A stretch of DNA of 64,000 nt, from assembly GCA_030583685.1 (NCBI GenBank), contig CP129470.1:340345-404344 (forward strand), written 5' to 3'. This document shows positions 15,618 through 61,551 of this stretch, piece after piece (position 1 is the stretch's first letter; each line of letters opens with the position of its first letter). Source of the DNA: Candidatus Dojkabacteria bacterium. GTDB lineage: Bacteria > Patescibacteriota > Dojkabacteria > GCA-002793355. A program made the position numbers and the translations under genes. The notes beneath the pieces are model-generated. The model had not been told where the DNA came from and searched no databases. It was given only the letters and a program-made list of their open reading frames with translations.

Positions 15618-16001
15618 TTACTTAACAGTGACTGTTGCGCCAGCTTCTTTCAGCTTGGCTGCAATTTCTTCTGCCTCTGCCTTTGCAACACCTTCCTTAA
15701 CGGATTTTGGTGCGCTTTCAACAAAGTCTTTTGCTTCTGTTAATCCAAGACCGGTAAGATCTTTCACGACCTTAATTACTCCGATTTTGTTTGACCCTGC
15801 GTTTTCGAGAACAACGTCAAAAGTGGATTTCTCCTCTTCTGGTGCTGCCGCTGCTGCGGGAGCTGCGACTGCAACTGCTGGTGCTGCTGCACTGACGCCA
15901 AATTTCTCTTCCATTGCCTTCACAAGGTCGGCAAGTTCGAGAACGCTCATCTCAGAAACGAGGTCGAGAACTTCCTGTTGTTTTTTGTTGAGTTCTGCCA
16001 T
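15618..16001 (-). CDS. rplL: 50S ribosomal protein L7/L12
   Basis: '[36 protein letters not shown]', an Ala-rich hinge, and C-terminal '[56 protein letters not shown]'. Confidence 0.95.
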
Positions 16002-16039
16002 GTTTCTCTTAGTAATATTATGTTTCTAAAAAAACTGAA

Positions 16040-16609
16040 TTACTCAGCCTTCTTATTCTGTAAATCAGATACTGCGTACACAAATGCGCGAGGAACTCCC
16101 TGCATCACATTGAGTAAGCCAGTTAATGGTGCTGCCATTGTGCCGACAAGTTGGGCAAGAATCGTTTGTTTGTCGGGAAGTTTAGACAGGCGAGCTACAT
16201 CTTGGTCGTTTAATACTGAACCGCTCACATATCCGAATTTGTAACTAAACGGGACATATTTTGCGACAGTGTCATCATCAGCACCGGTTAACGACAATTG
16301 TGCCTTTGCGTCTTTTACTGCATCGTCCAGTTTCTTGACAGCGGTAACAATATCATTTCCGCCTTCGATAACAGCAAGTTGTCCAACAAAGTTCTGTGCT
16401 GCCAGCTGAGAATCTTTTTCTGCTGCTTTTGCAAAAACAGTGTTTTTAATAACAAAAAGCTTTCCGTCAACTTCAGAAAGAAGTTTACGTAATGTTGTAA
16501 TTGATCGTGCAGGAACTTTATTTGTCTCGATGACAATAAAATTCGATTTGGTGACAACATCCTGATATGCGGAGAAAAGCTCTGCTTTCTGTGCTTTATT
16601 CTTTGGCAT
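16040..16609 (-). CDS. rplJ: 50S ribosomal protein L10
   Basis: 'MPKNKAQKAELFSAYQDVVTKSNFIVIETNKVPARSITTLRKLLSE..' matches the L10 family pattern. The start is taken at the internal Met (MPKNK). Confidence 0.9.
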   Translation of the reverse strand: MPKNKAQKAELFSAYQDVVTKSNFIVIETNKVPARSITTLRKLLSEVDGKLFVIKNTVFAKAAEKDSQLAAQNFVGQLAVIEGGNDIVTAVKKLDDAVKDAKAQLSLTGADDDTVAKYVPFSYKFGYVSGSVLNDQDVARLSKLPDKQTILAQLVGTMAAPLTGLLNVMQGVPRAFVYAVSDLQNKKAE

Positions 16610-16798
16610 TATAATCAAAACAAAATTACCTGAGAACAAAGAAAAAGGAAAAACTGAAAGTTTGACCTCGGCAGGGTATTAAAGCTCTTGTGCAAGCTAC
16701 CTGCTGTCTTTGATCTGAGGTATTATAGCACAACCGGAGCAAAGATTAAAGCGTTGAAACGATAGTGCTCATTACCTCAGCCGATTAAAGCTTTAATA

Positions 16799-17599
16799 CT
16801 AATCTTCATTTGGACCTCTTCCTTCACCGCCGCCAAGACGGCCATATCCTTCAACGACTTTCTTAACAATCTTTGATCCTGCATAAATACCCAATGCAAG
16901 AAAAATTACCGACCCGATAGAAGAAGTGATACTTCTTGATGCCTTCCGAGGAGTTGCGTAACGACGTGTTGAGGTACCTACATGCACTTTCAAAAACAAG
17001 TACCGATACCCTTTGGCGACAGCTTGAGCAAAGAATTCTCTATCCTCCCCAACCCCAATATTTTCGTCAAATCCCCCAGAATGGATGAATACTTTATTTT
17101 TTACAAGAATAAATGCACCGCCTTCAATTAACGCCTTGTTTATAACACTTTGCATTCGTCGCACAGAATTCCACCAACCATATACAAGTGTTCCTGCAAT
17201 GTACCCAAATTTTGTTGCATCTTCTTTTTCTGGAGTAAACCCAGCAGACGCAATATCTGCCTCTTGTGTGAGAAATTCCGAAAATGCCTCAATCAATGAA
17301 GATTTGGTTAACAATCTTGTATCCGCATCCAAAAACAACAGGTATTCTTGTGTCGCGACTTTTGCACCATTGTTGCGACCGACGGCAACCTTTCCACCCT
17401 CTACAACGATACAGCCGTATTTTTTTGCAATTTCCCTCGTCTTATCGGGTGATTGTGCGTCGGCAACAATAACTTCGTATGGACCGATAATTTGGTCCTG
17501 AATACTTTTGAGCAACTTAGGTAACGTCTTCTCCTCACAGTAGGTTGGAATGACAATTGAAATTGGAAGTTTGGTAAGAGAAATAGGGTTTTGACTCAT
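16799..17599 (-). CDS. family 2 glycosyltransferase
   Basis: 'ISIVIPTYCEEKTLPKLLKSI' GT-A N-terminus and a 'LFLDADTRL' DxD-type motif. Confidence 0.75.
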   Translation of the reverse strand: MSQNPISLTKLPISIVIPTYCEEKTLPKLLKSIQDQIIGPYEVIVADAQSPDKTREIAKKYGCIVVEGGKVAVGRNNGAKVATQEYLLFLDADTRLLTKSSLIEAFSEFLTQEADIASAGFTPEKEDATKFGYIAGTLVYGWWNSVRRMQSVINKALIEGGAFILVKNKVFIHSGGFDENIGVGEDREFFAQAVAKGYRYLFLKVHVGTSTRRYATPRKASRSITSSIGSVIFLALGIYAGSKIVKKVVEGYGRLGGGEGRGPNED

Positions 17600-23470: not shown

Positions 23471-23542
23471 TGGACCGTGAGGGATTCGAACCCCCGACCG
23501 AGCGATTAAGAGTCGCCTGCTCTACCACTGAGCTAACGATCC
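23471..23542 (-). tRNA. tRNA-Lys (anticodon CTT)
   Basis: Hand-folded from the reverse complement GGATCGT-TA-GCTC-AGTGGTA-GAGC-A-GGCGA-CTCTTAA-TCGCT-CGGTC-GGGGG-TTCGAAT-CCCTC-ACGGTCC-A. All four stems pair. U33 and A37 are present. No CCA is encoded. Confidence 0.8.
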
Positions 23543-23611
23543 ACAAAAGAATTATACACAATTTGAACCGAAATCACCACTCTTGATGACTCTTGCCCGT
23601 CTTTCGAAATA

Positions 23612-36831: not shown

Positions 36832-37161
36832 ATGACAAAGCAAGGTGTACGACAAGAAATGTCACAAAAAATACTGCAAGACCACAAGTCCCTCTCAATT
36901 GGAAAAGTGACACTTCTTTTTCGTCAGTCCACGATTTCACAAAAAAAACCAATCGTCATCATTAGTATTTCAAAAAAAGTTGTACCACTCGCTGTCTCAA
37001 GAAATTATATAAAGCGAGTTCTTCGGCAAATTCTTCGAGAATCGCTGCCTGTAACCACGTACCAAACGCATAATTGGATGTGGATCGTAAAAGAACCAAC
37101 ACTCACACCCGAGTTGCGAAAAAGTATAAACTCAACATTGCAACACGCATTTTCCACATGA
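36832..37161 (+). CDS. rnpA: RNase P protein component
   Basis: Basic ~110-aa protein with the RNR motif region '[17 protein letters not shown]'. Conserved position immediately upstream of yidD-yidC. The exact start is uncertain. Confidence 0.7.
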
Positions 37162-37480: not shown

Positions 37481-38626
37481 TTGCTAAATATCACAAAAAC
37501 CTTTACAATACGGCTTATGCTTGGAACAATTTGGGAAACACTCTTATACGGGCCAATTCACAACCTTTTGACCTATCTGTATGTGGTCACGGGAAGTATT
37601 GGAATCAGCACCTTTATCTTGATTATCATCATTAGACTTTTTATGTGGCCGATGGTCGCAAAGCAATACCGCGACACCAAGAAAATTCGTTCCATCCAAC
37701 CAAAATTAGACGAGATCAAAGAGAAGTACAAAAATAATCCAACGGAACTTGCGAAAGCGCAACAGGCTGTCTATAAAGATGCGAACTATAATCCCCTTGG
37801 ATGTGTCACCAATTTGCTGATTCAATTCCCAATTCTTATCGCACTCTACCAATCAGTTCTTGCATTTACAAAAGAAGGAGTCACACCCGCAAATATGACA
37901 GGACTTTACCCCTTCGTGCAGGAAAAGCTTCTTGCAACAGGTCAAACGGCATTTGCAACCGATCTCTTTGGAATCACGCTTATTTCTTCGCCGGGAAGTG
38001 CATTGTCAGGAGGTATTTTTACCGTTTCAGCTATTCCCTATCTGATACTTCTCTTACTTCTTGGACTTTCCAACCTTCTCCCAACACTTGTTTCTATGAA
38101 AATCATGAATACACAAGTCCCTAAGTTGAAGAAAAAAGGAGCCGAGAAAACTGATGCCGAAGCAATGCAGGAAGCATTCACTTCCTCGTTAAATACTTCT
38201 ACGCTCTATGTCATGCCAATTATGATTACCTTAACACTTATTCCCTTACCAAGTATTATTGCGGTTTATATGGTCGCACAAAATCTCATCTCGACCACAC
38301 AACAATTATTGGTTAAGTTTGTCCATGACATCGGTTTAAAAAAGAAACTTATTCCTATTCTCATTCAAAAGTACTCCTTCCAACCTCACGTTGCCGAAGA
38401 AACTGCAGCGAAGCTCATCAAGGTATCTCCCGCTATTAACTTCTTGGTTGACGAACTGGGCAATGCGGGAAAAATCGATACCACCTCAGTAAAGATTCAT
38501 GATATTACATTTGAAAAAGTATTACAGAAAGTAAAGAATGATACAGTAAAAGCGCTGTTTATCTTCGACAAAATGGCAAGAAAACCTGCCGAGGCAGAAC
38601 AGATACTCAAAGACTCTGGAAAGTAG
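37481..38626 (+). CDS. yidC: membrane protein insertase YidC/Oxa1 family (short form)
   Basis: Five-TM core with 'GISTFILIIIIRLFMWPMVAKQYRDTKKIRSIQPKLDEIKEKYKNNP' and amphipathic hairpin 'AVYKDANYNPLGCVTNLLIQFPILIALYQSV'. Confidence 0.85.
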   Translation: MLNITKTFTIRLMLGTIWETLLYGPIHNLLTYLYVVTGSIGISTFILIIIIRLFMWPMVAKQYRDTKKIRSIQPKLDEIKEKYKNNPTELAKAQQAVYKDANYNPLGCVTNLLIQFPILIALYQSVLAFTKEGVTPANMTGLYPFVQEKLLATGQTAFATDLFGITLISSPGSALSGGIFTVSAIPYLILLLLLGLSNLLPTLVSMKIMNTQVPKLKKKGAEKTDAEAMQEAFTSSLNTSTLYVMPIMITLTLIPLPSIIAVYMVAQNLISTTQQLLVKFVHDIGLKKKLIPILIQKYSFQPHVAEETAAKLIKVSPAINFLVDELGNAGKIDTTSVKIHDITFEKVLQKVKNDTVKALFIFDKMARKPAEAEQILKDSGK

Positions 38627-38679
38627 TTCCCTCTCTTTTTTCAGCACTGCGAGGAAGAGAACAGGTGGGCAATAAAAAA

Positions 38680-38795
38680 GCTTGGCGACGACCTATTTTC
38701 CCAGGAGAAAAATCCAAGTATCTTCGGCGCTGGGGTGTTTCACTTCCGAGTTCGGAAAGGGATCGGGTGGGTCCACTCCGCTCTTGTCACCAAGC
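38680..38795 (-). rRNA. rrf: 5S ribosomal RNA (116 nt), unlinked from the 16S-23S unit
   Basis: Reverse complement GCTTGGTGACAAGAGCGGAGTGGACCCACCCGATCCCTTTCCGAACTCGGAAGTGAAACACCCCAGCGCCGAAGATACTTGGATTTTTCTCCTGGGAAAATAGGTCGTCGCCAAGC. Terminal helix GCTTGGTGAC/GTCGCCAAGC. Loop-C/helix-III block 'CCGAACTCGGAAGTGAAAC' and loop-E region 'AGCGCCGAAGATA' align with the E. coli 5S positions. Confidence 0.8.
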
Positions 38796-38800
38796 ACAGA

Positions 38801-38829
38801 ATTATAACACGCAGATTGTTACTTGGCAA
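38801..38829 (-). promoter_or_regulatory. sigma70-type promoter for the 5S gene (TTGCCA-17 nt-TATAAT, 6 nt before the 5S 5' end)
   Basis: Minus-strand read 'TTGCCAagtaacaatctgcgtgtTATAATtctgtgGCTTGG...'. The hexamers lie at complement(38824..38829) and complement(38801..38806). Confidence 0.45.
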
Positions 38830-38849
38830 TATCACGGTATAATAAGTAT

Positions 38850-40754
38850 ATGAAGCGACCTAGCAAACGACAGATACTTCTTTTTAGTGTTGGAATAATC
38901 GGTACAATCGCATTATTAATGCTAGTCTTCGTGACGGTACAATTCATTTCAAAGCGCGCTTCTCATAATGGATCGATACAACTCCCTACGCCAACAGACA
39001 TTGTTGAAGAAGCTGAGGAGAAACGGCTTTATCCCTTACGGCCAATCATTCTACCAGTCGGTTATCAATTGAGCACCGAAGAAATAAACCTCCTTAAAAG
39101 CGAAGAAGTTACAGACATTATAATCGAAGACGAAACAGAAGAATACAAGTCCTATATCAGAAACATGCTCTTGACTAATCACCTTACAGGAATCTCACTT
39201 GAGAACTTTGCTTTATGCAAAGATGCTAACCTGGCAGTTTCTGACAACTCTGCTATCAATACCTTTATTATTCAGCAAAGTAGTAACAATAAAGAGTGCT
39301 TACCTGAGCACAAAAGAGGAAATATTTCAATTCTTGCATGCAACAAGGAGTCGCTTTTTTCGTGTTCACAACGGCTCATCGAACTCTCTGGTTCACTGCA
39401 TCCAGAATCCTATATATATTCTCCTCAATATCCGTTTCTTGCGGTTTACCAACAGCCTTCACTCACTGTGAATAACCCTTTTGGTACATATATCATTGAG
39501 TGGGATAAAGTTTCCTATCCATTCACCGTGACTTCATACAGTGTCGAAGTATTGACAACAAATAATGCAAGAGTGTTTGCAACAGGGAGAATCTCTACCC
39601 TTACCCGTGGTGATTATTTTATGCCAACACAAGAAATTGCGGATCAACCACTCATCACTCGGGTACGCTTTTGGGTTTCAGCAGCCGGCAAATCAATTCC
39701 AAACCCAATTGTTGTTGATAAACTATTTACCTTTAGTCAGTCACACCTCACAACGCAACCGCAAAATAATACCTCCACAGCTCCGCTTGAAATGAGTTGG
39801 ATTCCAGACTGGGGAATGACCGCAGGAATTACTTCAGTGCGTAATAATCCAAAAAAATGGCACACAATTTCTCCAACCTGGTTCGTTTTGAACAAGGATG
39901 GATCGCTTGGTAAGCGCCCAACAATAAATAATGCAACACTCACGAAGCTGCTTAAAGACAATCAAATCGTTTTACTCCCTACGATAGCGACTTTTGATCC
40001 TGATATTGTCAGTTCTATGCTCAATTCCCATATGGATAAGCACATCAAGGAAATTGTTGATACCGTTGTGAAAAATAATTACGCGGGCATCGATCTCGAT
40101 TACGAAAGCACTTATCTGAAAGACAAAGAATTACTCATTACTTTTGTCGAAAAACTGGCAGAGGAACTTCATAAAAAAGGGAAAAAGCTCTCATTTACCG
40201 CACTTCCCAAAATTGATGACCGGGAAATCTACAGTTTTCTTCCAGAAACGCATCAGGCGCAAGACTGGCGACGAATTGGTGCAGCGGTCGACGAATTTCG
40301 CATTATGGCCTACGATTTTACGGGGCAAGGAAGTAAACAGCCCGGTCCACTCTCTCCTATCTACTGGAATGAGACACTTATACGCTACGCAATCGCCCAA
40401 ATGCCCGCAGAAAAAGTTGTACTTGCCCTCCCTTTGTATTCACACGGATGGCCAAAACCAAAAAGCTCAAATCTTGCTGGGGCGAACAATGATCAATCGC
40501 TACACTCAGGAGAATTGAAAAACACCATATCTCTGCAACATTCAAATATTGACTACATAAAGCGCAACACCAGAACATATACAGAAGCATACGATAATTG
40601 GAACAAAGAGATGCGTGCAGAGTTCACGTATAACGGAGTTGAACGGGTGATGTATTATTTAGACAAAACAGCAGTAGAAGAACGTCTTGAATTAGCAAAG
40701 AAATACGGCATCAAGGGTGTTTGTTACTGGAGAATTGGCGGAGAAAGGTTGTAA
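38850..40754 (+). CDS. membrane-anchored glycoside hydrolase family 18-like protein (chitinase/lysozyme-like fold) with ~300-aa N-terminal region of unknown function
   Basis: TM 'ILLFSVGIIGTIALLMLVFVTV'. GH18 catalytic-strand motif 'YAGIDLDYES' (DxDxE). Start set to the ATG at 38850 (MKRPSKRQ), because the ORF-track TTG start at 38823 would overlap the 5S promoter. Confidence 0.5.
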   Translation: MKRPSKRQILLFSVGIIGTIALLMLVFVTVQFISKRASHNGSIQLPTPTDIVEEAEEKRLYPLRPIILPVGYQLSTEEINLLKSEEVTDIIIEDETEEYKSYIRNMLLTNHLTGISLENFALCKDANLAVSDNSAINTFIIQQSSNNKECLPEHKRGNISILACNKESLFSCSQRLIELSGSLHPESYIYSPQYPFLAVYQQPSLTVNNPFGTYIIEWDKVSYPFTVTSYSVEVLTTNNARVFATGRISTLTRGDYFMPTQEIADQPLITRVRFWVSAAGKSIPNPIVVDKLFTFSQSHLTTQPQNNTSTAPLEMSWIPDWGMTAGITSVRNNPKKWHTISPTWFVLNKDGSLGKRPTINNATLTKLLKDNQIVLLPTIATFDPDIVSSMLNSHMDKHIKEIVDTVVKNNYAGIDLDYESTYLKDKELLITFVEKLAEELHKKGKKLSFTALPKIDDREIYSFLPETHQAQDWRRIGAAVDEFRIMAYDFTGQGSKQPGPLSPIYWNETLIRYAIAQMPAEKVVLALPLYSHGWPKPKSSNLAGANNDQSLHSGELKNTISLQHSNIDYIKRNTRTYTEAYDNWNKEMRAEFTYNGVERVMYYLDKTAVEERLELAKKYGIKGVCYWRIGGERL

Positions 40755-40805
40755 ATTTTGAGCCAGGAGACTACACTCCTGCGATGTAATTACTTGATGA
40801 TGTCG

Positions 40806-42578
40806 TCAATTATCTATGTGTTTCTGAAATCCGCCACTCTGAATATCCCAAAGCCTTGAGTACAACCCTTTCTTTTTAATCAATTGCTCGTGAGTTCCAC
40901 TTTCAACAACTTTTCCTCCATCTATTACCAAAATATTGTCACTATTGATTATTGTACTCAGTCTATGAGCAATAACAATCGTTGTTGTATCCTTACTCAA
41001 CTCTGCAAACGCTTTTTTAATAGCCTGCTCACTTTCGCTGTCTAACATACTCGTTGCTTCATCAAAGATGACGATCTTAGGCATTTTCAGCAAAACTCTG
41101 GCAATCGCAATGCGCTGTTTCTGTCCTCCACTTAGTTTAATACCTCTTTCGCCAACGACAGTATCGAATTGTTGTGGCAAACTCATGATAAAGTCGTACA
41201 CACACGCTCTTTTACTTGCCTCAATAATTTGGTCTCGATAATCCTCAATCCTTTCAGGATCAGAGCACAGTGCATATCCAATGTTGAACAAGATACTTTT
41301 ATTAAACAAGGATGGTTCTTGCGGAACAATTCCAATAGATTTCTTTAGATACGTCAGTGGGAACTTTCGAATATCAACATCATCAATATAAACACCTCCC
41401 CTCTTGACATCGTAATATCGCATCAGTAACTTGACTGTAGTGCTTTTTCCACCACCTGAAGGTCCAACTAAAGCAATGTTTTGCTTTGGTTTTACTAGAA
41501 AACTTAAGCCTCGAAGAATGTTTCTCCTCTTATCATAGCCAAACATTACATCTTTAAATTCCACCTTTCCCTTCAGATTCTTAATTATAACTGGGGCAGT
41601 AGACTCCACCACTGTATTTTTTTCATTAATAAGGTTAAAAAGGTCCTCAGCAACGGGAAGATTCTTGAGAATATCACGCATAGTGAACACTACTCCGAGA
41701 AGACGTCCCACTAACTGGATAAGGTAGGTCAGCACAACAATAAACGCACCAAGAGATAATTCCCCAAGTTTAAAATAATGATTTGACAATACTGCCACTA
41801 CAACAAACGTAATCACTCCGATTAATCGAGTAACAAAATCAATTAGTCTAAAGGTATTCTCGTATTGGTCCATTGCAAATTTCCATTTGCCAACACTACT
41901 CTCTACATGACTCGATTCATCTGCTTCTCTGCTAAATATTCGGATTGTTTCGTAATTATTAATACCATCAAGTATTAAATCCGTTCGTGCGTACTCAGTA
42001 TCTTTTACTTTTCTTCTACGATGTATGTTCATTCTCAATGTTTTCAAAAGTATCGGCATTGAAAGTAATAGAATTACCATCATCGCAATACCCAGCTCAG
42101 GCTTAATCACATAGACAAGGATAATAGGAATAATATACCCAGCAAGGCTTTCAATAAGCAACCACTCCGCTTGCCATACAAAAAGAAATATTGTCGAATG
42201 CGCAGTTATTATCATCGAAGCAATTTTTCCTGTTTTTTTAGCAGTATGGAACGCATGATCTAGCGTAATAACTCTCTTATAAGCAGCGTTAATGATATCT
42301 CGTGAAATTGAAGAAAATAATCTAGATTTGATAAAAAAAGCGAATGGTTCGATAATCAAAGGTAAGGAAATAGTCAAGGTTATCAATAACAACGCGCTAA
42401 GCACCTGCTGATTTCCAACCGAAATTCTATCTATTAAATCACCAACTACAAAAATAGTAATGTTGTAAGCAATCAACAATGCGAGTACTCCAAGCCATGA
42501 CAGAATGTAAAAGAATCTGTAGGGTTTTGTGTATTTTAAGTACTCTAAATATACTTGGAAAAGACGTTTCATTTGCAA
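40806..42578 (-). CDS. ABC exporter, fused permease/ATPase (MsbA-like half transporter)
   Basis: Six N-terminal TM helices. Walker A 'GPSGGGKST'. Signature 'LSGGQKQRIAIARVLL'. Walker B 'IVIFDEATSMLD'. Confidence 0.85.
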   Translation of the reverse strand: MQMKRLFQVYLEYLKYTKPYRFFYILSWLGVLALLIAYNITIFVVGDLIDRISVGNQQVLSALLLITLTISLPLIIEPFAFFIKSRLFSSISRDIINAAYKRVITLDHAFHTAKKTGKIASMIITAHSTIFLFVWQAEWLLIESLAGYIIPIILVYVIKPELGIAMMVILLLSMPILLKTLRMNIHRRRKVKDTEYARTDLILDGINNYETIRIFSREADESSHVESSVGKWKFAMDQYENTFRLIDFVTRLIGVITFVVVAVLSNHYFKLGELSLGAFIVVLTYLIQLVGRLLGVVFTMRDILKNLPVAEDLFNLINEKNTVVESTAPVIIKNLKGKVEFKDVMFGYDKRRNILRGLSFLVKPKQNIALVGPSGGGKSTTVKLLMRYYDVKRGGVYIDDVDIRKFPLTYLKKSIGIVPQEPSLFNKSILFNIGYALCSDPERIEDYRDQIIEASKRACVYDFIMSLPQQFDTVVGERGIKLSGGQKQRIAIARVLLKMPKIVIFDEATSMLDSESEQAIKKAFAELSKDTTTIVIAHRLSTIINSDNILVIDGGKVVESGTHEQLIKKKGLYSRLWDIQSGGFQKHIDN

Positions 42579-42608
42579 ACCAATAATAAAATGTCTTGGA
42601 TTATAGCA

Positions 42609-43208
42609 CTATTTTTTGAACTCTTTCCCAAAAATACGTTTATAAGACTTCAAAATCGTAATCTTGTGCTCTGGTGGATACTCAGATAAAACTCTATGCA
42701 GCCTTTCTTCAAGTGTTTCAAGCCCCATCTCCTCCCTTCTTTTAGCCAATTCTTCTGGTTTTTCAATCTCGTAAATTTCGTATCCTTCACCACGATCTAA
42801 AAAATATTGTCCGTATATTTGCGGAATTCCTCTTTGCATATTCATCGCATCAATCCAATTTGCCAATCGTTTTCCATCTATATTTGATTTATCTTCATCA
42901 AAAAGTTTTTTAGCCATTTCTAAGAGTTTGACCGAAGTATCGATATCTCGTGAATGTTGTGCAATTAAAATAGCTGCATATGCAGCTTCCTCGCCAACTT
43001 TCGGGATTGTTGGCCATCCAATAGACTCTACAATTGATAGTAATTCAATCAGGTTCTTTTTATCAATTTCTTCTTGAAGCAATCTTATTTCTGGACCACC
43101 GGTAATCCATTCACTTCTATATTGTTGATCGAGTTCTTTCAATTCTAGTAACTTTTTTGCTGCTTGCTTGTTATTCATACATTGAATTATACCACCCGAT
43201 TGCGTCAA
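42609..43208 (-). CDS. hypothetical soluble protein (199 aa)
   Basis: Uninterrupted ORF with ordinary composition, positioned between the ABC exporter and the 23S 3' end. I recognise no family. Confidence 0.5.
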   Translation of the reverse strand: MTQSGGIIQCMNNKQAAKKLLELKELDQQYRSEWITGGPEIRLLQEEIDKKNLIELLSIVESIGWPTIPKVGEEAAYAAILIAQHSRDIDTSVKLLEMAKKLFDEDKSNIDGKRLANWIDAMNMQRGIPQIYGQYFLDRGEGYEIYEIEKPEELAKRREEMGLETLEERLHRVLSEYPPEHKITILKSYKRIFGKEFKK

Positions 43209-43397
43209 AAACCACCGAGCTAGTCGGTAAACGAATTCACAAACGTGAATTTTGGATAACTAAAAAGAATCATTCGCTTTACTATTCGTAAAGTATGAAT
43301 TCCTTAGTATTAATCATTAAGAATGGAAACTTAATGCTCAGCCCAAAAAGACTTTGCACAAGTACATTAATAATTGAATAGGTATGTGACCAAACAA

Positions 43398-46544
<3,147 letters not shown>

Positions 46545-46909
46545 TAATTCAATTGTTAATGAACTATTGACTTTCGTCAGTCAATTCGTAAAAGAATTGA
46601 GGAATTTTCTCAAGAGAAAACTCCAGTATTCCTTCACTCTCTGCGTTTACGAGCAATCGTAAGCAGATTTTATTCGAACCCCTTTAGTGTGTCAACATCA
46701 ATTTAGGTTCGAAAAAATATCTCCTTCTGAGTGCAGAAGTTCACGCGCGAGCGTGGGATGCCTCTGCTTCGAGGTATTTTATCAAATTTCCGAGGTGTGT
46801 GCAATGCTTTTTGGCTCCGTTATATTGGTTGCCCGCATTATTTGTTGAATGTAGCGTCTTGTGCAGTGTAGTCCCCATTCTTTCGATCTCTGAACCCTGT
46901 TACAGATTC

Positions 46910-46982
46910 TGGACCTGAGGGGATTCGAACCCCTGACAACCCGCATGCAAAGCGGGTGCTCTACCAACTGAGCTACAGGCCC
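46910..46982 (-). tRNA. tRNA-Ala (anticodon TGC)
   Basis: GGGCCTG-TA-GCTC-AGTTGGTA-GAGC-A-CCCGC-TTTGCAT-GCGGG-TTGTC-AGGGG-TTCGAAT-CCCCT-CAGGTCC-A. The G3:U70 alanine identity pair is present. No CCA is encoded. Confidence 0.9.
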
Positions 46983-46995
46983 GAGTCCCAAAGAA

Positions 46996-47067
46996 TGGGC
47001 ATGCTTGGGGTCGAACCAAGGACCACTGCATTATCAGTACAGTGCTCTACCACTGAGCTACATGCCC
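46996..47067 (-). tRNA. tRNA-Ile (anticodon GAT)
   Basis: GGGCATG-TA-GCTC-AGTGGTA-GAGC-A-CTGTA-CTGATAA-TGCAG-TGGTC-CTTGG-TTCGACC-CCAAG-CATGCCC-A. Lies in the 16S-23S spacer. Confidence 0.9.
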
Positions 47068-47111: not shown

Positions 47112-48655
<1,544 letters not shown>

Positions 48656-48940: not shown

Positions 48941-48969
48941 ATTCTAACACAAACGATTGTAGTGTCAAA
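48941..48969 (-). promoter_or_regulatory. candidate rRNA operon promoter (TTGACA-17 nt-TAGAAT) with AT-rich upstream element
   Basis: Minus-strand read 'TTGACActacaatcgtttgtgtTAGAAT', about 290 nt upstream of the 16S 5' end. Upstream is 'taaatgataaatattcggtaat'. Confidence 0.4.
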
Positions 48970-49149
48970 TTACCGAATATTTATCATTTAGGGGATCAAC
49001 GCTTCTTATTTTTTTCTTAAGAGCAAGGGAATTATACACCGAGAATTAAGGTCAAGTCAAGGGCAGGATGCAAAATAGCAGGAACGTGAAGGAATACTCT
49101 GATAATTGATTGCCCAGACGGGCTTTTCGAGAGTGTCTCGAGAACCTGC

Positions 49150-52100
49150 TTACTCGCTTACATTGACCACATACCACCCAACACTCACACCTTCACTTTG
49201 AGGAGCAGCCAACCGAAGGACAAAACCTCCCTCAAAGGGTTCAACTGCAACTACAACTGCCTTGTTAGGTGTTACTACAACAATAGATTCTTCGGTGACC
49301 AACAGTGACTCAACGGTAAACTCGGTTTCCCCCGCGTCAATGATTACACGTCCAGCTTGCTGGTCAGAGACAATAAGATTATTTACCTTGACCCCCTCAA
49401 CAGAGGCCTCAAGAGCAGTTTCCCCATCAACCGTAATCGCAAAACGATCACTTCCTTCAAGCGTAATCGTTACTGCACCTCCAATACCCTTAATTGTTGG
49501 TGTCGAAATAACAGAAGCAAGTACAGTACCAGACGTTGTCATATTTCCTTCATCATCTACAAAGAAGAGATCATTAACCGCAAGTGTGCGGGTTCGAAGC
49601 ACATTAATTTCTGCGGTTGTCGCTGTTACGTTTGGAACAATAATTCCATGAGTCGATTGTATCGTTGTATCAGTAACCTGATTCCACCCCGCACTTACCG
49701 TTCCAGCAGTTGCAATAGCGGTTTCTGCAGCACCATTCTTAACAAAGATAAGCACCTTCTTCACTTTCTTCCCTCCTACGGTATCAGTTACTGTGGACCA
49801 ATCTATCGCTTCTTGGGCTACAGCAACAACACCAGAACCATCCTTTTGCGCATATCCAGGCAAAGTTGAAGAAATACTCAGTAAGTCACCAACAACAACG
49901 TTGCCACCCGATCCCTCTTCTATCCACGCATATGAAGGACCGAATGTTGCAACAAGATATGGATTCCCTGTTTCATCGTACGGTGTTCTCTGAGCTTCAG
50001 GACCTGTGGCAACACCCAGGAAAGTATTTTTGTTCGCCTGTGCTGCTGCCGTTAAGGCATGAATTACTCTATTCCTTTCATCTACACCTAGTTGCGTTGC
50101 ACCTGAGTATGAGACCAACAGGCCATCTTCAATTTCTGCCTCAGAACCTCCCGCCATATACATCGTCTCAGTGAAACGCACAGGATCATCAAAAATCTCA
50201 ATAATAGGATTCTCCATTTCTTCAAGCACACTTTCAGGTAGTTCGGCGTCTGCTGGTGGGTCATCCTGCCAAATCTCTATTGAGTCTACACGCAACTGTT
50301 TAAGCACTGCTTCATTGGTAACAATTGAGATTTCGAATTCATGGACTACTGATGTTGGAGGCAAATTTGTTGAATGATCAGCAACAAGACGACCATCAAT
50401 AAAGAATCGAGCACTTGTTGCAGTCGTCTCAACTCGCAATATATTCATTGGCAACCCAGTCGCAGGAGTCACTCCCGTATTTGTGGTTGTTGCATTACTG
50501 GCATCAGTTCTTGATACGGCTTGCCATGCGCCACCGTTTGTAGAAAGGAAGTAGGCACCCGATGTTGGAACAGCACCTGTTGAAACGGTACGCTGCATAA
50601 ACCCAACATAGACTACTGAAGTTGCCGCACTCGGCAAGTTTACCTCTGTTTCAAACACTGGGTTATACGCCGTTGAAATTTGATTCACATTGTTGAAATC
50701 AATAAGACAAGCGTTTCCTGATGTTTCCCCCGTTTGCAATTGCACGACACCATTAACAGCTCCGCTGACGAACGATGCCGTACATGCACTATTGATTCCC
50801 AAGCGTAGTCCTTCCCACCAGTTTGCAGTATTTGCAGTAACGTTTGCTCGTGAGCCAATAAAATCTGTAAAGAAATAATGCCATGACTGGTTTATTCTTC
50901 CATCAACAGATAGTGTATCTAGTGGTGGCTTCGCTGCTGATGTTCCAATGCTGACATTTGAAGACTCATTAAAGGTTGTACTTGAATAGCTTCCGGTCAC
51001 CGTAATTCCCGTGTCATCAAAGGTTAAAGGTTGCGTTGCTTCTACATATCCTATGAAGCCGGTTGTGTTTGGTGAGGTTGCTGCTGTTGTTCTGAAAATT
51101 CGATACCCCACTGCTCCTGGAACGGCTGTCCAGGTTATCGTATTGTAGTTTGCTCCTGTAAGAGTTGCAGGAGCACTCGTCCTTGTTCCTTCGGCAGAAA
51201 GAATTGTTTCATTCCCATGTGCATTAACCGCCGAAACTCGATATCTCCAGGTTGCGGCACCTGAACTGGTTCCTCCGACACTCGGTGCTGCCGGTGTCTG
51301 CAAGCCCATAAAAGAAGCCCCACCATAAAAGGCAGAACTTCCTGTTACCGCAAGCGTATTTGTGTACACCTCGACCGCTGTATCATTTCCGTTATCAGAA
51401 AATGCGACGTCAACTGTTAACGAGGTATCAGAAGCAATACTTACGACAGTTCGAATTTCTCCTGAAACAACAATTCTGTCGCCAACACTAACTTCAGCAA
51501 GAAAGCGCGTCCCAACTCCTGTTACTGCAGTCGACGCAATTGGATCAATCGACCCCGTAAGGGTGCGAATGGAAGCACCATATACCTCTAACGTTGCTCT
51601 TGGTTCCGCTATACCCACACCTACGCGACCATTCGAGAGGGTATCACCAGTTCCATCTAGTCCTCTTCCATAAATCATATTTCCAATATTGAGCGTATTC
51701 GACTCCGTCAAGGAAACTGCATTAATGTCTGTTCCAATCACAATATTTCGAGACCCGGTTGTGATATTGTCTCCTGCGCGATATCCGAGCAGGACATTTC
51801 CTGAACCGGTCGACACATCATACCCCGCCGCGAACCCAACTGCGACATTATTGTTACCGTCTAAGTCGTTCGCAGGGTCAAGACTATATAACGCATTCAT
51901 TCCCAATGCAGTATTCTGCAAACCGTAGCGATTACTGAGTAACGATTGAACACCGAGTGCTGTATTGTTATAGCCGGTTTCATTCCCGGATAGAGCACTT
52001 GATCCAACCGCCGTATTGTAAAATCCATCCACATTACCATCCAAGGCAAAACTCCCCAGAGCAGTATTATTATACCCAGTTTCATTTGTATAGAGAGCAG

Positions 52101-55100
52101 AAATACCGACGGCAGTGTTTTCTGAGCCAGTGGTGTTTGCCATTAGTACTTGTGCACCAACTGCTGTATTAAATTCCCCAGTGTTCGCTATCAAGGTATA
52201 ATGACCAACACCTGTATTTAAGGTGCCAGAAACGTTGGATTGTAAGGAATTTGCACCTATGGCAACATTACCACTACCGTCAACATTTTCATATAACGCC
52301 CACCCACCGATTGCAATATTTTCCCAATTATCATTCTTGTACAACGCATTATATCCAAGCGCGATATTATAGTTCCCCCCCCCACTCACTGCCATTGCGC
52401 TGTTTCCGATTGCAATATTATTATCAGCGTCATTTGACTCTGCCAATGCATAATTACCAATTCCAATATTCCCACTGCTCGTCTGTGAATTAGCGAGGAC
52501 ATAGTTTCCAATTGCAATATTTTGCGATGCTTGTATGGCATTGCTTAAATTTTCAATACCAATAACAACATTTCTGTAAACATCAGCACTGCTGTTATTC
52601 GACAATGAACTATACCCAATGAATACATTCTTCGAGAAATCGTCTCCAAGTCCAATCAATGAATCTCCCTTAAGGTCATAGAGAGCGAAGGCAGGCTGTG
52701 CATTCAAAACCTCAACTACAGAAACATCATCTATCGTAAACGTTCCTCCCGTAATGCCATTCCATAATCCAAAGGTCACGGTGTGTGAACCACTGAGTTT
52801 GGCCTTAAAATATTTCACAACCGTTCCATTCCCTGTCACCGGGACTTCAGCACCATCATTCCCACCATTTGACCACCAGTACATGCCATCATTTGCAATA
52901 CCCGAAATAGTAAACTCAATCTTATATATTTTTCCAATCTCAGTCACAATTGAAGTACTTATTTCTGGCCAATCTTCATGCAAACCTTCATCATACGCAA
53001 TGGTTACGGCATTACTACCATAAGTAGCAGAGTCTGCGAGTGTCCATCCGGTAGCACTTCCGGTAAAAGTGCCGTTCGTCACCAATTCTGAGCCATATGC
53101 AGATACTGTACTATCAATGACGAGCTTTGCGTCTCCAGAAGATGCTCCAAAACTTACCCTGCCACTTGTCTTATCAAGAAACAGCAAATCATTCAAAAAC
53201 GAAATGCTTCCATTGCTCGTGCTATCAGTATCAAATCTAAGAACATTATTCTCAGCATCATAGGAAATCATTCCCTGGTCTGAGGAGGAAGCACCGATAT
53301 AAATGGTGTCACCACCAAGATAGAGATCTCGGAAGCGATACGCATCAGAACCAAGGTCATAGGTATTGTTTGCACTTGGCCCAATATGTCCTGCGACTTC
53401 GAGTTTGAAATTACTCGCGGTTGTCCCGATTCCCACATTTCCGCCAGCGGTAATCGACATCTTTTCTGTATTATTGGTTATGAATGACAATCCGTAATTA
53501 TCAGTAGTCCCGAGAACTCCGGTTTCACCAAAGGCATTGCCTCCAAGTTCATAACAATCAGTACATTCTCCCCCTCCTCCGCCACCTACAACGCCAGTGC
53601 CTATCGCATTTAATCGAACATTTTGCGTAATTCCTGAGTAGTTATACAAACGAACATTGTTTGCATCCAACTGTTCGATTCTGAATCCCGATTGCCCAAG
53701 CCAACTAACTCCATATTGCGTCACAAAGGTAGAGGTTTTTGCGTTGGTTCGGGCAAATTCAAAGCGCATCTTCAATTCATTTCCAGAAGCAGAGAAAATA
53801 CACGAATACTCTGTTTCAGGCGGATACACCTCTGCATTTGTTGAAACAACAGTACATGTCGCAAAGGTACTGCCATCGTCAACCGAAGCTTTTACGGTAA
53901 TGGTATTACCAGAATCATCGGCATCGGTTACCCCCTTTACCCAAACGACTGCTGACGCAATATTTTTTGGCAATTCATACATCTTAGATTCATAGACTGC
54001 GCTATTTAATGTTGTTTGATTGTCTGGACCGATAATTTTTGCTCCATCAGTTAATGACGCGACCAACTCAAGATGGTCACCCACCAAAACAGAAGACGTA
54101 TTCTGATTTACCAATACTGGACCACCTGTAGGTACATTTGCAGACGAACCATACGTCTTGATATTAGTGTCCGCATTGAGTTGTATTTTACTGACTCTCC
54201 CATTGCTCGTGTGATTTGTACCAACATACATATATTGACGTTGCTTGTCGATTGCAACATCTCCAATAACATTTGATGTTCCGCCAAGTTGTTGGTTTGT
54301 ATCTGCACCTCCGCCACCAAAGATTGTTCCATGACTTTGCAATGCACGAGATCCTGTTTCATACATTTTGCGAACATCAGCTCCACTAATCTCTGTTGCC
54401 GTCACAAATATTTCATCGAGATACCCATTGAAATACTGGACTGCAGCATTCGCATGGCGACCGATATAAAAACTTTGTGTTACATCCATGATTCCACTCG
54501 AATATGCGACGGAATCTTCTAAAACACCATTAATGTACAGGTTTAGACGAGTTCCTGTATAAACGGTTACTACATGATACCAGGTATCAAGTGCAATCGT
54601 TGTTTTGCTTGTTACAGCGTTACCTGAGGAGTTGTTTAAGGCCTGTGACAAAATTTGATTACTACTATTAAGCGTTGTTATATACCCTCCATTATTCGAA
54701 GCATTAACATTAAAACTTTTCGACATCACCACACGACTGGTTCCCGCTCCCCCTTTCGCCTGAATCCAACCACCCCATGCCCATGCGCCAGAACCGGTAT
54801 AGTCAAGTTTTGAGGTACCACCACAGGAGGCATCAGTACAATAGTAGGCTTGATTGGTTCCGTTGTAACTACCTGCCTCACCTCTGACACCAGATACTGC
54901 CGTTACGGGACCACTTTCATTTGTTAATGTGTTTCCTCTCCCTGATAAATCTCCGTTCATCTGCCACATACCACGAATATCACCAAACATTTCTTCCGAA
55001 ATATTACTTGTTGTATAGTATTTTGCCGATCCAAACTTTTCTGTCCCCCCATCGTTTGCTGTAGCGATTGAATTTCCACTGTTCTCCTGAATAACCGTAA

Positions 55101-58100
55101 GCCCACTTGCTGTTCCAACATAGAGTGTATTTGAACCGGGATCGACTAATGAGCTTCCTTCTTCCACATGAAGAGCATTGATTTGACTTACCCCTGTCGC
55201 ATTGCCGAGTATCGTGGGGCCATTTAAAGACCAACCTGAAGTTGATGCACCAACCCAATAAACTCCAGTTCTATACAAAGCGAGGCTTGACTCAGTCATT
55301 AATCCATGAACATTCCTATAAACCTCGACCCGTGAAATATTGGCCGTTGAGTTACTCATTGCTGAATACAGGGAGTTGTTGTCTGTAAGCTCAACCTTAC
55401 TGTGCCAAATTGTGTCGCCTATGTGCGAGCCAAGGAAAACATGAGCACTTCTTGAATCAGTTTCATTAACTACAGTTACTCCTCCATCAACTCCGCTCGC
55501 TCCTGTGGCTACCGCAATGAATTGTTTTGGAGCAACAACTCCAGTTGCAGTCCACGTATAACAATAAAAGGTAGTCGTACTGAAATTTCCGTCTGCTGCA
55601 TCACTCGCAGATAATCGTTGAGTGAAACTATTATTCGTTATTGATGATGCAATGCTCGTTATTCTTTGGTTCGCTCCCGTACATTCCGCAAGCGTTCTTG
55701 GTGCAGTTGTTGTACGCGAAGCTACCGATACCGTAGAAACTGTAGGAATATTGACAAAAGTATAAGGCAGGAGAACCTGCTCACTTATTGTCGTTGCCGC
55801 AGCACCTTGAATATACCCCCATCCACTTATAGTCACCTCTTTTGTTGGATGATTTGGAATAACTGCGACACTCACATCCATTACCGCATCATGAGCCAAT
55901 GACATTTCAGAGGATAAACTCGAAAAACCAAGTCCTGCGTTTCTTCGGGAAATACTTCCCCCGTATTTTGTATACCCGGCGCTGTGATGATTATAGCCAT
56001 CATCCATTGAAAAACGGATTCTCGCGAAGTACCCTAGTACTTCTGTTGGTTCATTAATACCGACATAGACATTCCCGTTTAATGCTTCAATAGTACGCGC
56101 TTTGAGCAGGGTTGTTACAGGAAGCATGTTAATCGCAGTAGTTGTACCAGATATCCTCATCCATAATTTTTGGGTATCTGCATCAATAATATCGACATGA
56201 TCTCGGGTTGAGATAATATAACTCCGGTCAGGAAACTCCTGTTTTGAACCTCGAATTGAAGAGGTTGGTTCAGTGAACCATGAGGCTATCTGGAACACAT
56301 CTCCCGTCATATACTGTGCCCCTGTGAAAATAACACTCACGCCTGTTGACCCAAGTACCTGCGAGACACCGGGAGTAATGGTAACTCCGGACGCTGAATT
56401 CCCATTGTTATCTGTCCAGTTGAACGTAAAAGGACTCGTAATTGTAATAAGAATTGGTCGTGGGTTACTTGAATATCTCCCGATTGCTTTGATCAGTGAA
56501 CCATTATATGTTGTGCTGAGATTCTTCCCTGCTGAAGACAATAATACAACTCCATTGTTCCAATTCGGATCAATACCCAATTCAACCTGCACCTCAGGGG
56601 AACTATCTTCAGAAAGCTCGTAATAATATGAATCCGTAACCACATTAGTTCCCAAATAATTGTTTCCTGCGGTATCGGTAGTTGAAGAGTTGAGTGTTTG
56701 ATTACCCCATAACCCAATTCTTCCTGTTTGTTCACGATAACCACCAAGTGATTTATGAGGATCGAGCAACTGCATAGAGAATACACTTGTTGTTACGGTA
56801 GAGTCGGTCTTTGTTTTGTCTTCAAAGGTATCGAAAAAGATTCCCTGGTCCAAAAGGTTACTGGTATATGCGCCCGTTTCCGCAATTTGCCGATACATTT
56901 GTGCCGCCTGATAGTAACTTTCTCTCGTAGCATGTCTACCTTCCCACGCAATTGCTGGTGTATATGTTGTATCTAACTGTTTCCAGACTGAATCTGAGAA
57001 AATCCAGCCCATTGCCAATATGTCGTTTGTATCAAAACCATGCTCAATATTGAGGTACGAGCCATTCGCAAGAGATGCATTTGACGCTGTAAGTATTGAA
57101 TTCCCCGTTAAATCCTGCCAACTGAGCGTGCCTGCTGTATTAACCAATACACCATCTGCGGACGCTGTTGGCAAGGTATAGGTAATATTCCCAGACTGGT
57201 CGCCCCCTTGGAATACTGTGTAAAATTCTGGTGAACCTCCCCCTTCAAGAATTCCCAAGGTTCCAGCAACCGAAAGTGTTTGTCCAGGCGTTGCCGTACC
57301 AATACCTACCCGACTTTCTGATTTATCGAGATACAAAACATTAGTAAAGAATGCGATATCTCCATTGCTTGTGCTATCTGTTGAAAAATTGAAAATGTTT
57401 GCAGTCGTATTGTACGAAATAATCCCCTGATCTGTTGCAGAAGTACCGATATAGATACTTTCTCCGCCAAGATAGAGATCTCGGAAACGATATGAATCTG
57501 AGCCAAGGTCATAAGTATCATTTGCACTTGGTAACAGACTTGAGGTCATACTAATGACCCCTGATGTCCCAATTGAAAGCCGTTCAATATTGTTTGTGAT
57601 GAACGAAAGCGCATAATTATCTGTTGTTCCAAGAACTCCTGGTTCGCCAAAGGCATTCCCATCCTGTTCAAAACACGCGGCACAACTCGTTACTGTTTCC
57701 CAACTTAATACCCCTCCTGTATTCGTTAATACTCCATTTACCGAAGTCGTTGGAAGGGTATAGGTGATATTGCCAGACTGATCACCTCCCTGAAAAATGG
57801 TAAAGAACTCAGGTGACGTTCCCCCTTCAAGAATTCCAAAATTCCCCGCTATGGAAAGCGTTTGCTGAGGAGCATACACCCCGATTCCGACATTTCCCCC
57901 AAAATAGTTTGTTCCCCCTTCGGAATACAACGCAAAGGAATCTCCCGATGCTGCATCTTCATAATTGCTAATATATAAACCATACAGGTAATCCACATTC
58001 ATCGTTCCATATGAGCCATGTCCAATCATAATTCCATATACTTCACTGCTGCCAGTCGGTTGTGCACCATAGTAATTTGTTTCTACATTCAAACCAATGA

Positions 58101-61100
58101 AGTTTAAACTTTCTTCTGCATCTTGGAACATTTCAACTACCGTTTCCTGACCAGTTAAATGTGCGACTCCAACATTTCCAGCAGAAACAGAGCTCACAAT
58201 TCCGAACCCGTCCACGTAATCCGCATACCCAAGATACAGGGAGAATACTGCAGCATCACCGCTCAAATAATTCGAATATGCTAAGCCATTTCCATATGCC
58301 TCGACATGAGCACGAATACCATTATAGTATCCCTGATCTTCTATATTTTCACGATAAATGTCGACGATCATACCTTGATATTCCTCTTCTATTTTGTCTA
58401 GGCCATATGAGTCAATTCGCAATCCGGTGCCCCATGAGGTATCAGTATTATGAACAACATGCAATTTCGCCTCTGGTACTGCCGTGCCAATTCCGACATT
58501 TGCATAATCGTAACCACCTCCCGCCGAAAAGATTACTTCCCCACTGCTATCCCGCGCAAGAAACGCTCCCGGGAATGTAATTTCTCTGAATGAAACATCA
58601 TCAAGAGTAAACGTGCTGTTTTCAGTAGATGGATTATTTGTACCAAAGTATACACCACCGTTAGTTCCGTCTTCTCTTGCAAAAAATATAACCTCGTAGG
58701 TGCCGTTCGAATCAAAGGAATTGACAAAACTTGTCGAAACAAGTTCCAGATTAACTAGTTCAATTTGAAGTATAGCGTCAACAGTACTCACGCCAGAAAG
58801 CGTAAATTGTAAGCGGTAATACTTCCCTTGCACAATGGTATATCCTTCCTGCCAAAGTTCACTATTCCCTCCGCCATCTGTAGTTGTGAGTATTACATTA
58901 TTACTTCCATAGGTTGTACCACCATTTGTATCCCATCCGGTCAATCCTCCGGTAAAAGTACCGTTTGTAACTAGTTCAGTGCCGATAACCTCAAATGGCT
59001 TGGCTTGTACATCAAGCGTTGCACGTGGAGAAGAAACACCTATTCCGAGTCTTCCTGTCTCAGACAAAATCATTGCAAGGGTATCGTTTGTGATAAATTC
59101 AAGCGCAAAGTTATCCGTTGTTCCAAGAACCCCTACTGCTCCAAACGCATTCCCGTCTTGTTCAAAACAAGCAACACAACCACCTCCTGCAGTTTCCCAA
59201 CTGAGCACCCCACCCGTATTCGTCAATACCCCATTTGCAGAAGCCGTTGGTAAGGTATAGGTAATGGTTGCAGACTGGTCACCCCCCTGAAAAATGGTAA
59301 AATATTCTGGGGAGCTTCCTCCTTCCAAAATCTTGAGGTTCCCAAAGACGCCCAATCCTGAACCGTCAAGCGAAGCCATATGCTTATTTTCACCATTAAC
59401 AAGCGTCGAAAAGAGTAACTGTCCATCCTCCGAACCCGCTGAAGGATCTATTGCTAGCGCACTCATCGCAGCATAATCCGCATACGACGGTGGCGCACTG
59501 TCATTATAATAGTAAATATTTCCATCACCAGGACCATAGTAGCTTCCTGCAAAAACCACGCCCGTGTCCGTATCGATTCCTAAGCTCACAATTTCGTTTG
59601 CAGACGCGTCATACGACAAGGTCCATTCACCTGAGGAGTCACAACCGGTAGAAACAGAACATACATAAATATAGCCTACGTCTCCCGTAGCAGCATACAT
59701 CCTTCCGTGTACAGGATCATACGCAAGTGCATATATCCAATCTGACATATCTGAATACACTAAGTTCCAATCTCCTCCTGCGTCACAATTCGTAGCCGTG
59801 TCACATCGATAAAGATCATTCTCTGTGGCAGCGTACAGCACATCATTATCTGTATCTACACCGATTGACGTTACGTTTGCATTCGGAAGATCGACGGATA
59901 GTGTCCAATCGGTATCTTGATCACAACCGGTCGACGTTTCACAGCGATACACTCCCGCAGAATATTTTGTTCCTGCATAAAGGACACTGTTTGCGGCATC
60001 AAACGCGAAAGAATCAATCCCACTAATTCCTGAAATATCATAAGGGGCAGTCACCGTAAAATCACCTGAGGCATCACATCCTGTCGCGGCAATATCACAT
60101 CTGTGGACATATTTCAGGGTCGCATTATCTGTTCCAATATAGAGCACCGAGTTATTAGTATCCACGACGAGTCGCTGTCCATCATCATCACCAACCGAAT
60201 AAACTGAGGTCCACTCCCCGGGAATATCACAACCAGTTGTCGTATCACAACGAAATATATTTTGCTCTCCTAACGCAAACAACAGTCCACTTGTTGGATC
60301 AAAAACAATACTTCGTATCGAATTATCAGGGTTTGAGGCTTCATACACCTCTGCCCAATCTCCAGAGGAATCACACCCAGAAGACATTGGACAACGAAGG
60401 ATAACCGGGTCCCATGCAGTTGTCGCATACATTACTCCGTTTACGGAATCATACGCAAAAGCCAAGACATCCTCAAAGGGGGTAGCGTACGACGTCTGCC
60501 AATTTGGCGTCGATACATTTTGTGCGCGAAACACATGTGTCCCAAAAATTGTGTTTGTTCCTGGATTCCCAAGGAGCGTCGTTCCAAAAACGACTGGCCC
60601 AACCGTATCTGCCAGGGTCAGTTGATCAGTTGGCGTAGTCGTTCCAATTCCCACATTTCCACTAGAAGTAATGACCATTCGAGCGATACTGTCAGTTAGG
60701 AATGAAAGCCCATACGCGTCTAACGTTCCTAAAACACCAGGAGCTCCAAACTCATTTCCTCCTTGTTTAAAAAAACTGTTATGAGTGAAGGCGTTACCGG
60801 CACCATCAGTCAATGCTTGTGCTCGCAATGCGACGGGAACTGCAGTAATTGGCTTACGTGTGGAAAAAACCTCCTCATATCGATGGGTTGCAGGAGAACA
60901 ATTTGTATCGCTACTATCACCAGTATTGCCATTTGCATCAAAACAAACCTGTAAGTAAAGATCTGCATTATCAAACACAGTTGAACCAAAAGGCGTCACT
61001 GAACCCAATTCAACACTCAAAATTCCGTCCGTTACTGTCAAAGAACGATCCTCTGACCATACCGCCGTTCCTCCAGTACTGACGGTGTATAACAAAAATC

Positions 61101-61478: not shown

Positions 61479-61551
61479 TGCGCCCGGTAGGAATCGAACC
61501 TACAACCAACAGATTAGAAGTCTGCTGCTCTATCCGTTGAGCTACGGGCGC
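61479..61551 (-). tRNA. tRNA-Arg (anticodon TCT)
   Basis: GCGCCCG-TA-GCTC-AACGGATA-GAGC-A-GCAGA-CTTCTAA-TCTGT-TGGTT-GTAGG-TTCGATT-CCTAC-CGGGCGC-A. No CCA is encoded. Confidence 0.85.

Follow-up and report, generated by a model that had tools for sequence, protein, structure and literature searches.

A 5S rRNA gene detached from the 16S–23S unit, with an apparent promoter of its own, in Candidatus Dojkabacteria and related lineages

[quoted passage not shown] The question raised by such a locus is how the 5S gene is transcribed, and where its RNA begins and ends. Separation of 5S from the other rRNA genes has been described before. The 5S gene of Mycoplasma flocculare is separate from the 16S–23S operon (PMC4357767). 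Occasional separation of 23S and 5S was reported for circularised CPR genomes and called very unusual for bacteria: in 32 of 34 such genomes, the two genes are 55–314 bp apart, and in 2 the distance exceeds 2 kb (Lui et al., 2021; PMC8172020). In the same CPR genomes, the detached rRNA gene is nearly always 16S, and in the sole Dojkabacteria genome among them all three genes form an operon, 23S and 5S being 131 bp apart (PMC8172020). Unlinked rRNA genes in CPR are also attributed there to Brewer et al. (2020), as cited in PMC8172020. No promoter or terminator analysis is given by Lui et al. (PMC8172020), and published CPR ribosome analyses treat the length of 5S but not its linkage or transcription signals. 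A stand-alone bacterial 5S gene is, then, an arrangement already known, to which the locus below adds a further example at the level of a clade; the only potentially new element is the 5S design that we infer, leaderless and self-terminating. The genes of the locus are as follows.

36832-37161: rnpA homologue (annotated PF00825 in relatives)
37517..38626, plus strand: yidC, 369 aa, convergent with 5S
38665..38853, plus strand: spurious 62-aa ORF, antisense to 5S, no Pfam match
38680..38795, minus strand: 5S rRNA gene (RF00001 match 38680-38794, plus G38795 as the predicted first transcribed base)
38850..40754, plus strand: GH18-domain gene (PF00704, 2e-25), divergent from 5S
40806..42578, minus strand: ABC exporter (ABC_membrane and ABC_tran), a variable occupant of the GH18–23S interval
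42609..43178, minus strand: DUF6624 gene (Pfam), likely ATG at 43178 with TATAAT 7 nt upstream
43393..46529, minus strand: 23S rRNA gene (Rfam)
46910..47067, minus strand: tRNA-Ala(tgc) and tRNA-Ile(gat) in the 16S–23S spacer
47112..48655, minus strand: 16S rRNA gene (Rfam)

The identity of the 5S gene is clear. In a cmscan of the 64-kb window, RF00001 matched with 89.7 bits (gathering score 38, E=6e-18) over model positions 1–120, and this match, 38680-38794 on the minus strand, was the sole 5S in the Rfam scan of the whole window. A permissive scan of 38300-43700 turned up neither another 5S nor a degenerate one after the 23S gene at E<=10. The covariance model thus bears out the gene proposed in the initial annotation, and at full length, with no copy overlooked behind 23S. 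The same annotation had placed 5S 4.6 kb downstream of 23S on the same strand, beyond two minus-strand genes and an opposite-strand GH18-like gene; the distance, from the 23S end to the 5S 5′ end, was measured as 4,598 nt, and the DUF6624, ABC exporter and PF00704 matches account for the genes between. The 16S-Ile-Ala-23S unit that it described is present too, although it ends at 43393 and not near 43398. Lui et al. (2021) counted rRNA genes as unlinked when more than 2,000 bp and one or more opposite-strand genes lay between them (PMC8172020); by that measure the 5S is unlinked, given its distance from 23S and the plus-strand GH18 gene in the interval. Between the plus-strand yidC and GH18 genes, 5S is the only gene on the minus strand. 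Its predicted fold is the three-way junction with helices I–V, and of the 33 predicted pairs, 7 carry compensatory changes among 12 clade sequences, a pattern by which the RNA is judged to be under structural constraint. The 62-aa ORF over the region, also pointed out in the initial annotation, does exist. It was rejected as a gene, being without a family match, antisense to the constrained RNA and uncalled in relatives. The accompanying worry that automated annotation might miss the 5S or call a bogus protein proved unfounded, as the score is far above the Rfam threshold used by standard pipelines and no protein gene is called in the yidC–GH18 gap in the records of any of the relatives.

The loci used for comparison are contigs with YidC homologues of 44–72% identity, together with one further clade contig from a metagenome scan. 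They comprise 12 independent lineages (the window, L001/L012, L003, L004, L005, L006, L008, L009, L014, L015, L018 and L043), and the YidC homologues carry the labels Patescibacteria, Dojkabacteria (WS6) and Magasanikiibacteriota; the labels that tell most are those of two Dojkabacteria genomes, one a complete 1.09-Mb chromosome (CP129477.1). The order yidC, 5S, GH18, with 5S convergent with the first and divergent from the second, was found with a full-length 5S in all 11 lineages with protein-coding flanks, L043 having been compared over 5S and its immediate flanks only. An assembly artefact was considered and rejected, since the same order recurs across 12 independent assemblies. GH18 is the one gene always present between 5S and 23S. 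Beyond it, the interval differs from lineage to lineage in both gene content and length, with 5S and 23S 2.1 kb apart at the least and more than 9.8 kb apart at the most:

L003: no gene between GH18 and 23S; 5S to 23S 2.1 kb
L005: a 248-aa gene between GH18 and 23S
L004 and the window: the ABC exporter between GH18 and 23S
L001: four other genes between GH18 and 23S; 9.5 kb
L012: 5S to 23S more than 9.8 kb

No 5S was seen beside yidC in the outgroups L010, L019 and L020, in which YidC identity is about 30%. Because the order is kept across the related lineages and absent in the outgroups, the detachment of 5S is best placed in the ancestor of the clade, the GH18–23S interval having since been a site of gene turnover. 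The unlinked 5S is thus kept across the clade, which is the comparison to which the initial annotation had looked. The most distant clade members, L006 and L018, show a further peculiarity: their 23S genes (13158-16277 and 13976-17097, respectively) have neither 16S nor spacer tRNAs within 3.7–4.5 kb upstream, and all three rRNA genes may be separate in these two.

The signals around the 5S gene were considered next to this conserved order. Two elements flank it directly:

38801..38829, minus strand: predicted 5S promoter (-35 TTGCCA at 38829-38824, 17-nt spacer, extended -10 TGtTATAAT at 38809-38801)
38671..38679, minus strand: U-tract TTTTTTATT, immediately following the 5S 3′ end and proposed as termination signal together with helix I

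The promoter, described earlier as TTGCCA, 17 nt and TATAAT placed 6 nt before 5S, was found in that form, with a TG in addition. The TATAAT lies at 38806-38801 and the TG at 38809-38808, which makes it an extended -10, and 6 nt separate it from 5S. Against the sigma-70-type consensus, it scores 11/12 plus TG. A score of 11/12 is in itself nothing unusual (4 such sites in the 14 kb scanned), and shuffled sequence gives an about equal number of sites at >=9/12. A chance origin of the motif was nonetheless rejected on its conservation in relatives, the elements being conserved above the neighbouring sequence. When the sequences are anchored on the 5S 5′ end, 12/12 lineages have TTGnnn-17-TGnTATAAT followed by 5–6 nt with a G just before 5S; the L009 variant is TATACT, shifted by 1 nt. 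The top-base frequency over the 12 lineages is 0.96 in the TGn plus -10 and 0.83 in the -35; it falls to 0.54 within the spacer and to 0.47 in the flank upstream, and both the spacer sequence and the outer flanks of 5S vary. The 5S almost certainly has its own promoter, and the earlier proposal of a detached 5S with such a promoter gains from hexamers and a fixed spacing that are present in every one of the 12 lineages.

Start-site selection in bacteria favours a G six nucleotides after the -10 and preceded by T. Position 38794, at which the Rfam match begins, is a C, a poor initiating nucleotide. In the predicted fold, the preceding G38795 pairs with the 3′-terminal C38680 and extends helix I to 10 bp; 12/12 lineages have this G(-1):C pair, both bases of which are invariant. 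The invariant G(-1), paired with the 3′ C, and the favourable start-site context lead us to place the start at G38795, and it is probable that 5S transcription begins there, at the mature 5′ end or one nucleotide before it.

At the other end of the gene, helix I (GCUUGGUGAC/GUCGCCAAGC), with its 10 bp, runs in the fold straight into UUUUUU. The combination resembles an intrinsic terminator in one respect and departs from it in another. There is a G+C-containing stem followed by a U-tract, in the form of helix I and U6, but instead of a short loop of about 3–8 nt, helix I closes the ~95-nt multibranch body of 5S, and it was passed over by a terminator scan limited to loops of 3–8 nt. Together, the helix and the U-tract would make a non-canonical terminator, and whether they end the 5S transcript is an evenly balanced call. 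It could be argued that 5S, while having its own promoter, is made with short extensions that are then trimmed by nucleases, that the T-run is just AT-rich sequence, and that termination occurs later or by Rho. The non-canonical nature of helix I as a terminator hairpin fits this, and weak terminator-like hairpins do occur about 80–100 nt downstream of 5S (38598-38575, minus strand). The position of the tract is harder to reconcile with trimming: in 12/12 lineages, a T-rich stretch of at least T4 sets in 0–1 nt past the 3′ C, although the sequence beyond it does not align, and T>=5 abuts the 3′ end in 0 of about 84 unrelated 5S genes among the matches listed. Stand-alone 5S genes of the comparison set described below use a separate hairpin. 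Production with trimmed extensions is, on balance, rather unlikely, although it deserves some weight.

A second alternative concerns the promoter itself. The 5S could be cut by nucleases from a transcript that reads through from the 16S–23S unit, the promoter-like motif serving to regulate the divergent GH18 gene. The 5S, DUF6624 and ABC genes do share the strand of 23S, and there is overlap between the 5S promoter and the promoter region of GH18. Such a transcript would, however, meet the following element soon after leaving 23S:

43207..43230, minus strand: intrinsic terminator of the 16S–23S unit (hairpin ACCGACTAGCTCGGTGG, then TTTTT, about 165 nt after 23S)

The same hairpin and T-run follow 23S in L001, L003 and L004 as well, with differences in the loop. 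Beyond this conserved terminator, the transcript would have to cross 1.9 kb of antisense GH18, and up to more than 9 kb in relatives. The -35 and -10 also point towards 5S, at a fixed 5–6 nt, whereas anything from 23 to 105 nt separates them from the GH18 ATG. With the 23S terminator and the antisense GH18 gene in the way, co-transcription of 5S and 23S looks unlikely, and maturation of 5S from a read-through transcript is very improbable. Still less credible is a reading of this 5S as a redundant or decaying gene whose working counterpart lies beside 23S elsewhere in the genome. Only 64 kb of the genome is in view, and some bacteria do have orphan 5S genes; but the gene is full-length and high-scoring, compensatory changes maintain all its helices, the same slot is kept in 12 lineages, and in the window, L003, L005, L006, L014 and L018 no 5S follows the only 23S in view.

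The own conserved promoter, the topology of the locus and the separate 23S terminator together argue for 5S as an independent one-gene transcription unit, and we hold it to be very probably that. RNA polymerase with the housekeeping sigma factor would bind the near-consensus extended -10 promoter and would most likely initiate at G38795, 0–1 nt before the mature 5′ end; the stop would most likely come from helix I and the U-tract immediately behind it. A primary transcript bounded in this way would differ little, if at all, from the mature 5S RNA and would need no processing. The 16S-tRNAIle-tRNAAla-23S unit would be transcribed separately and stop at its own hairpin terminator. As for the origin of the arrangement, the opposite-strand GH18 gene would have come between 23S and 5S in the clade ancestor, with later gain and loss of further genes between GH18 and 23S.

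The 5S and GH18 promoters lie back to back, as compared in the window (38795-38850) and at the equivalent positions of L001, L003, L004 and L008. In the window they are interdigitated: the GH18 -35 (38816-38821, plus strand) falls within the spacer of the 5S promoter, whose own -35 in turn lies between the -35 and -10 of GH18. The predicted 5S and GH18 starts are 55 bp apart in the window and 67–71 bp apart in close relatives, and the two promoters might compete for polymerase.

The close spacing of promoter and gene is found elsewhere in this genome. Window-wide, nine long ORFs have TAnAAT 5–8 nt before an ATG, against a background of about 0.4 per gap position, and eight of the nine are real genes (rnpA, yidC, GH18, DUF6624, ybaB and three others). 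The ATGs concerned are:

36832, 37517 and 38850, plus strand: ATGs with TAnAAT 5–8 nt upstream
43178, 36795, 19985, 15518 and 2951, minus strand: ATGs with TAnAAT 5–8 nt upstream

For GH18, the TATAAT is at 38838-38843, 6 nt before the ATG, and the mRNA is probably leaderless. For yidC, GH18 and DUF6624, the same placement calls for starts other than those of the ORF list. The yidC start is ATG 37517, with TACAAT 7 nt before it, and not the ORF-list TTG 37481, and the protein P0001, 369 aa in length, is 100% identical; the DUF6624 gene, 199 aa long from the ORF-list TTG 43208, is more likely one of 189 aa from ATG 43178. Given the excess of such placements over background, leaderless transcription, and with it leaderless mRNAs, appears common in this genome. 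Two solitary tRNA genes show a comparable layout:

23471-23556, minus strand: solitary tRNA-Lys gene
61479-61564, minus strand: solitary tRNA-Arg gene

In the first, TATAAT is followed by 8 nt and a 5′ G, and T7 comes directly after the discriminator base; in the second, TATAAT is followed by 7 nt and a 5′ G, and the T-rich tail starts 1 nt beyond the discriminator. CCA is encoded by neither solitary tRNA gene of the window. The tRNA-Lys design is the same in L004 (8042-8113) and looser in L006 and L018. The transcripts of these solitary tRNA genes would be near-leaderless and trailerless despite the presence of rnpA. Judged from these placements, the position of the 5S promoter reads as the RNA-gene version of a leaderless habit, not as a special 5S device. 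A more far-reaching proposal is that 5S and the solitary tRNAs are all processing-free primary transcripts, starting at the mature nucleotide and terminating by means of their own helix and U-tract; we put this forward as tentative, and as more doubtful than not. If true, it would make them the RNA-gene counterpart of the widespread leaderless mRNAs of this genome and would set them, as a bacterial case, beside the leaderless tRNAs of Nanoarchaeum and Pol III 5S genes, and a reduced genome could dispense with 5S-maturation nucleases. On such nucleases (RNase M5, RNase E) in CPR, a literature search gave no usable statement.

Eukaryotic Pol III 5S genes and archaeal stand-alone 5S genes start at the mature nucleotide and have an oligo-T 3′ end. 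Leaderless tRNA genes are described in Nanoarchaeum equitans (Randau et al., 2008, as discussed in PMC10100707). The 5S gene of the window resembles N. equitans tRNA genes and Pol III 5S genes in a promoter set for a start at the mature first nucleotide and in the oligo-T at the 3′ end. It differs in that those systems use archaeal or eukaryotic polymerases, which terminate at oligo-T without a hairpin, while here the polymerase is bacterial and the start is a predicted one. The start geometry of the N. equitans type fits, with the -10 placed 5–6 nt before the predicted start at G(-1); the lack of RNase P known from N. equitans does not, as the rnpA homologue listed above lies next to yidC. 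Among bacteria, M. flocculare is alike in having 16S and 23S together, a single 5S elsewhere and a small, reduced genome (PMC4357767). It differs in belonging to an unrelated phylum, and in the present clade 5S stays within 2–10 kb of 23S on the same strand. Compared with the CPR pattern of Lui et al. (2021), in which 16S is detached, the situation here is the reverse: 16S–23S is kept and 5S is detached.

What follows for rRNA supply can be stated with different degrees of firmness. It is a fair inference that independent transcription of 5S would alter how rRNA stoichiometry is controlled, as the initial annotation suggested, and the point applies equally to known organisms with separate 5S genes. 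If the ends proposed for the 5S transcript are right, the supply of 5S would be set by promoter strength alone, with no maturation nuclease needed, which would bear on simplified ribosome biogenesis in reduced genomes. At least 12 lineages have 5S, not 16S, detached, the reverse of the usual candidate-phyla pattern, and through them a promoter has been footprinted phylogenetically in an uncultivated group whose promoters are essentially uncharacterised. Tools that assume an rRNA operon, such as long-read 16S-23S-5S amplicons or operon copy-number logic, miss the 5S in this clade.

The comparison set was obtained by a metagenome scan with the 5S motif CAGCGYCGAAGATACTTRG, the 23S genes being located by blastn. 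The motif is common to many unrelated, mostly high-GC bacteria, and among the matches listed the only clade members are L043 and L055. Where enough flank was available, nearly all 5S genes among these matches lie 37–490 nt after 23S. One high-GC lineage (GC 0.65–0.69; L023, L024, L033, L059, L060, L070, L082, L116, L130, L135 and others), whose 5S starts with CTCGGTCC, shows the order 23S, strong hairpin terminator, promoter, 6 nt, 5S and separate hairpin terminator. The promoter is TTGACC or TTGCCG, 17 or 18 nt, and TACACT or TACAAT, and the 23S–5S distance is mostly 120–490 nt, with 3.2 kb in L070. The terminator and promoter before 5S imply that 5S is separately promoted in the CTCGGTCC lineage even near 23S. 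Lower-GC contigs with apparently stand-alone 5S genes and canonical hairpin terminators were also found. In L100 (5S at 3066-3182, oriented), TGcTATAAT lies 5 nt before the gene and no 23S occurs within 3 kb upstream; in L026 (4746-4860), TTGCAA-TGcTATAAT lies about 45 nt upstream and no 23S occurs within 4.7 kb; in L104, 5S follows a tRNA. From the promoters abutting 5S in the CTCGGTCC lineage and in L100, it follows that this feature is not unique to the present clade. The 3′ ends differ: the CTCGGTCC lineage and the lower-GC contigs have a separate canonical hairpin after 5S, and the clade has the U-tract abutting helix I.

Some features of the 16S–23S unit itself are worth recording. Upstream of 16S, there are consensus matches as follows:

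48941..49060, minus strand: two 16S-upstream promoter-like sites (consensus matches only)

They read TTGACT-18-TATAAT (49060-49031) and TTGACA-16-TGnTAGAAT (48968-48941) and lie 280–400 nt from 16S. A further promoter-like sequence, TTGACA-17-TAAAAT (11/12), is found between tRNA-Ala and 23S (46667-46695, minus strand) and might act as a promoter within the rRNA unit. The 23S gene, 3,137 nt long against a model of 2,925 positions, carries two insertions in domain I, of about 38 and 76 nt, and 16S has one of about 30 nt near its 5′ end; ORF-bearing introns were not seen in either gene of the window in the Rfam scan. Immediately upstream of the 16S promoters lies a giant gene for a surface-type protein of 4,043 aa (49150-61281, minus strand). 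In relatives, proteins of 3,000–4,600 aa with Laminin_G_3/DUF2341 adjoin the recR-ybaB-rnpA-yidC block instead, at positions 1-7300 in L001, L003, L005 and L008.
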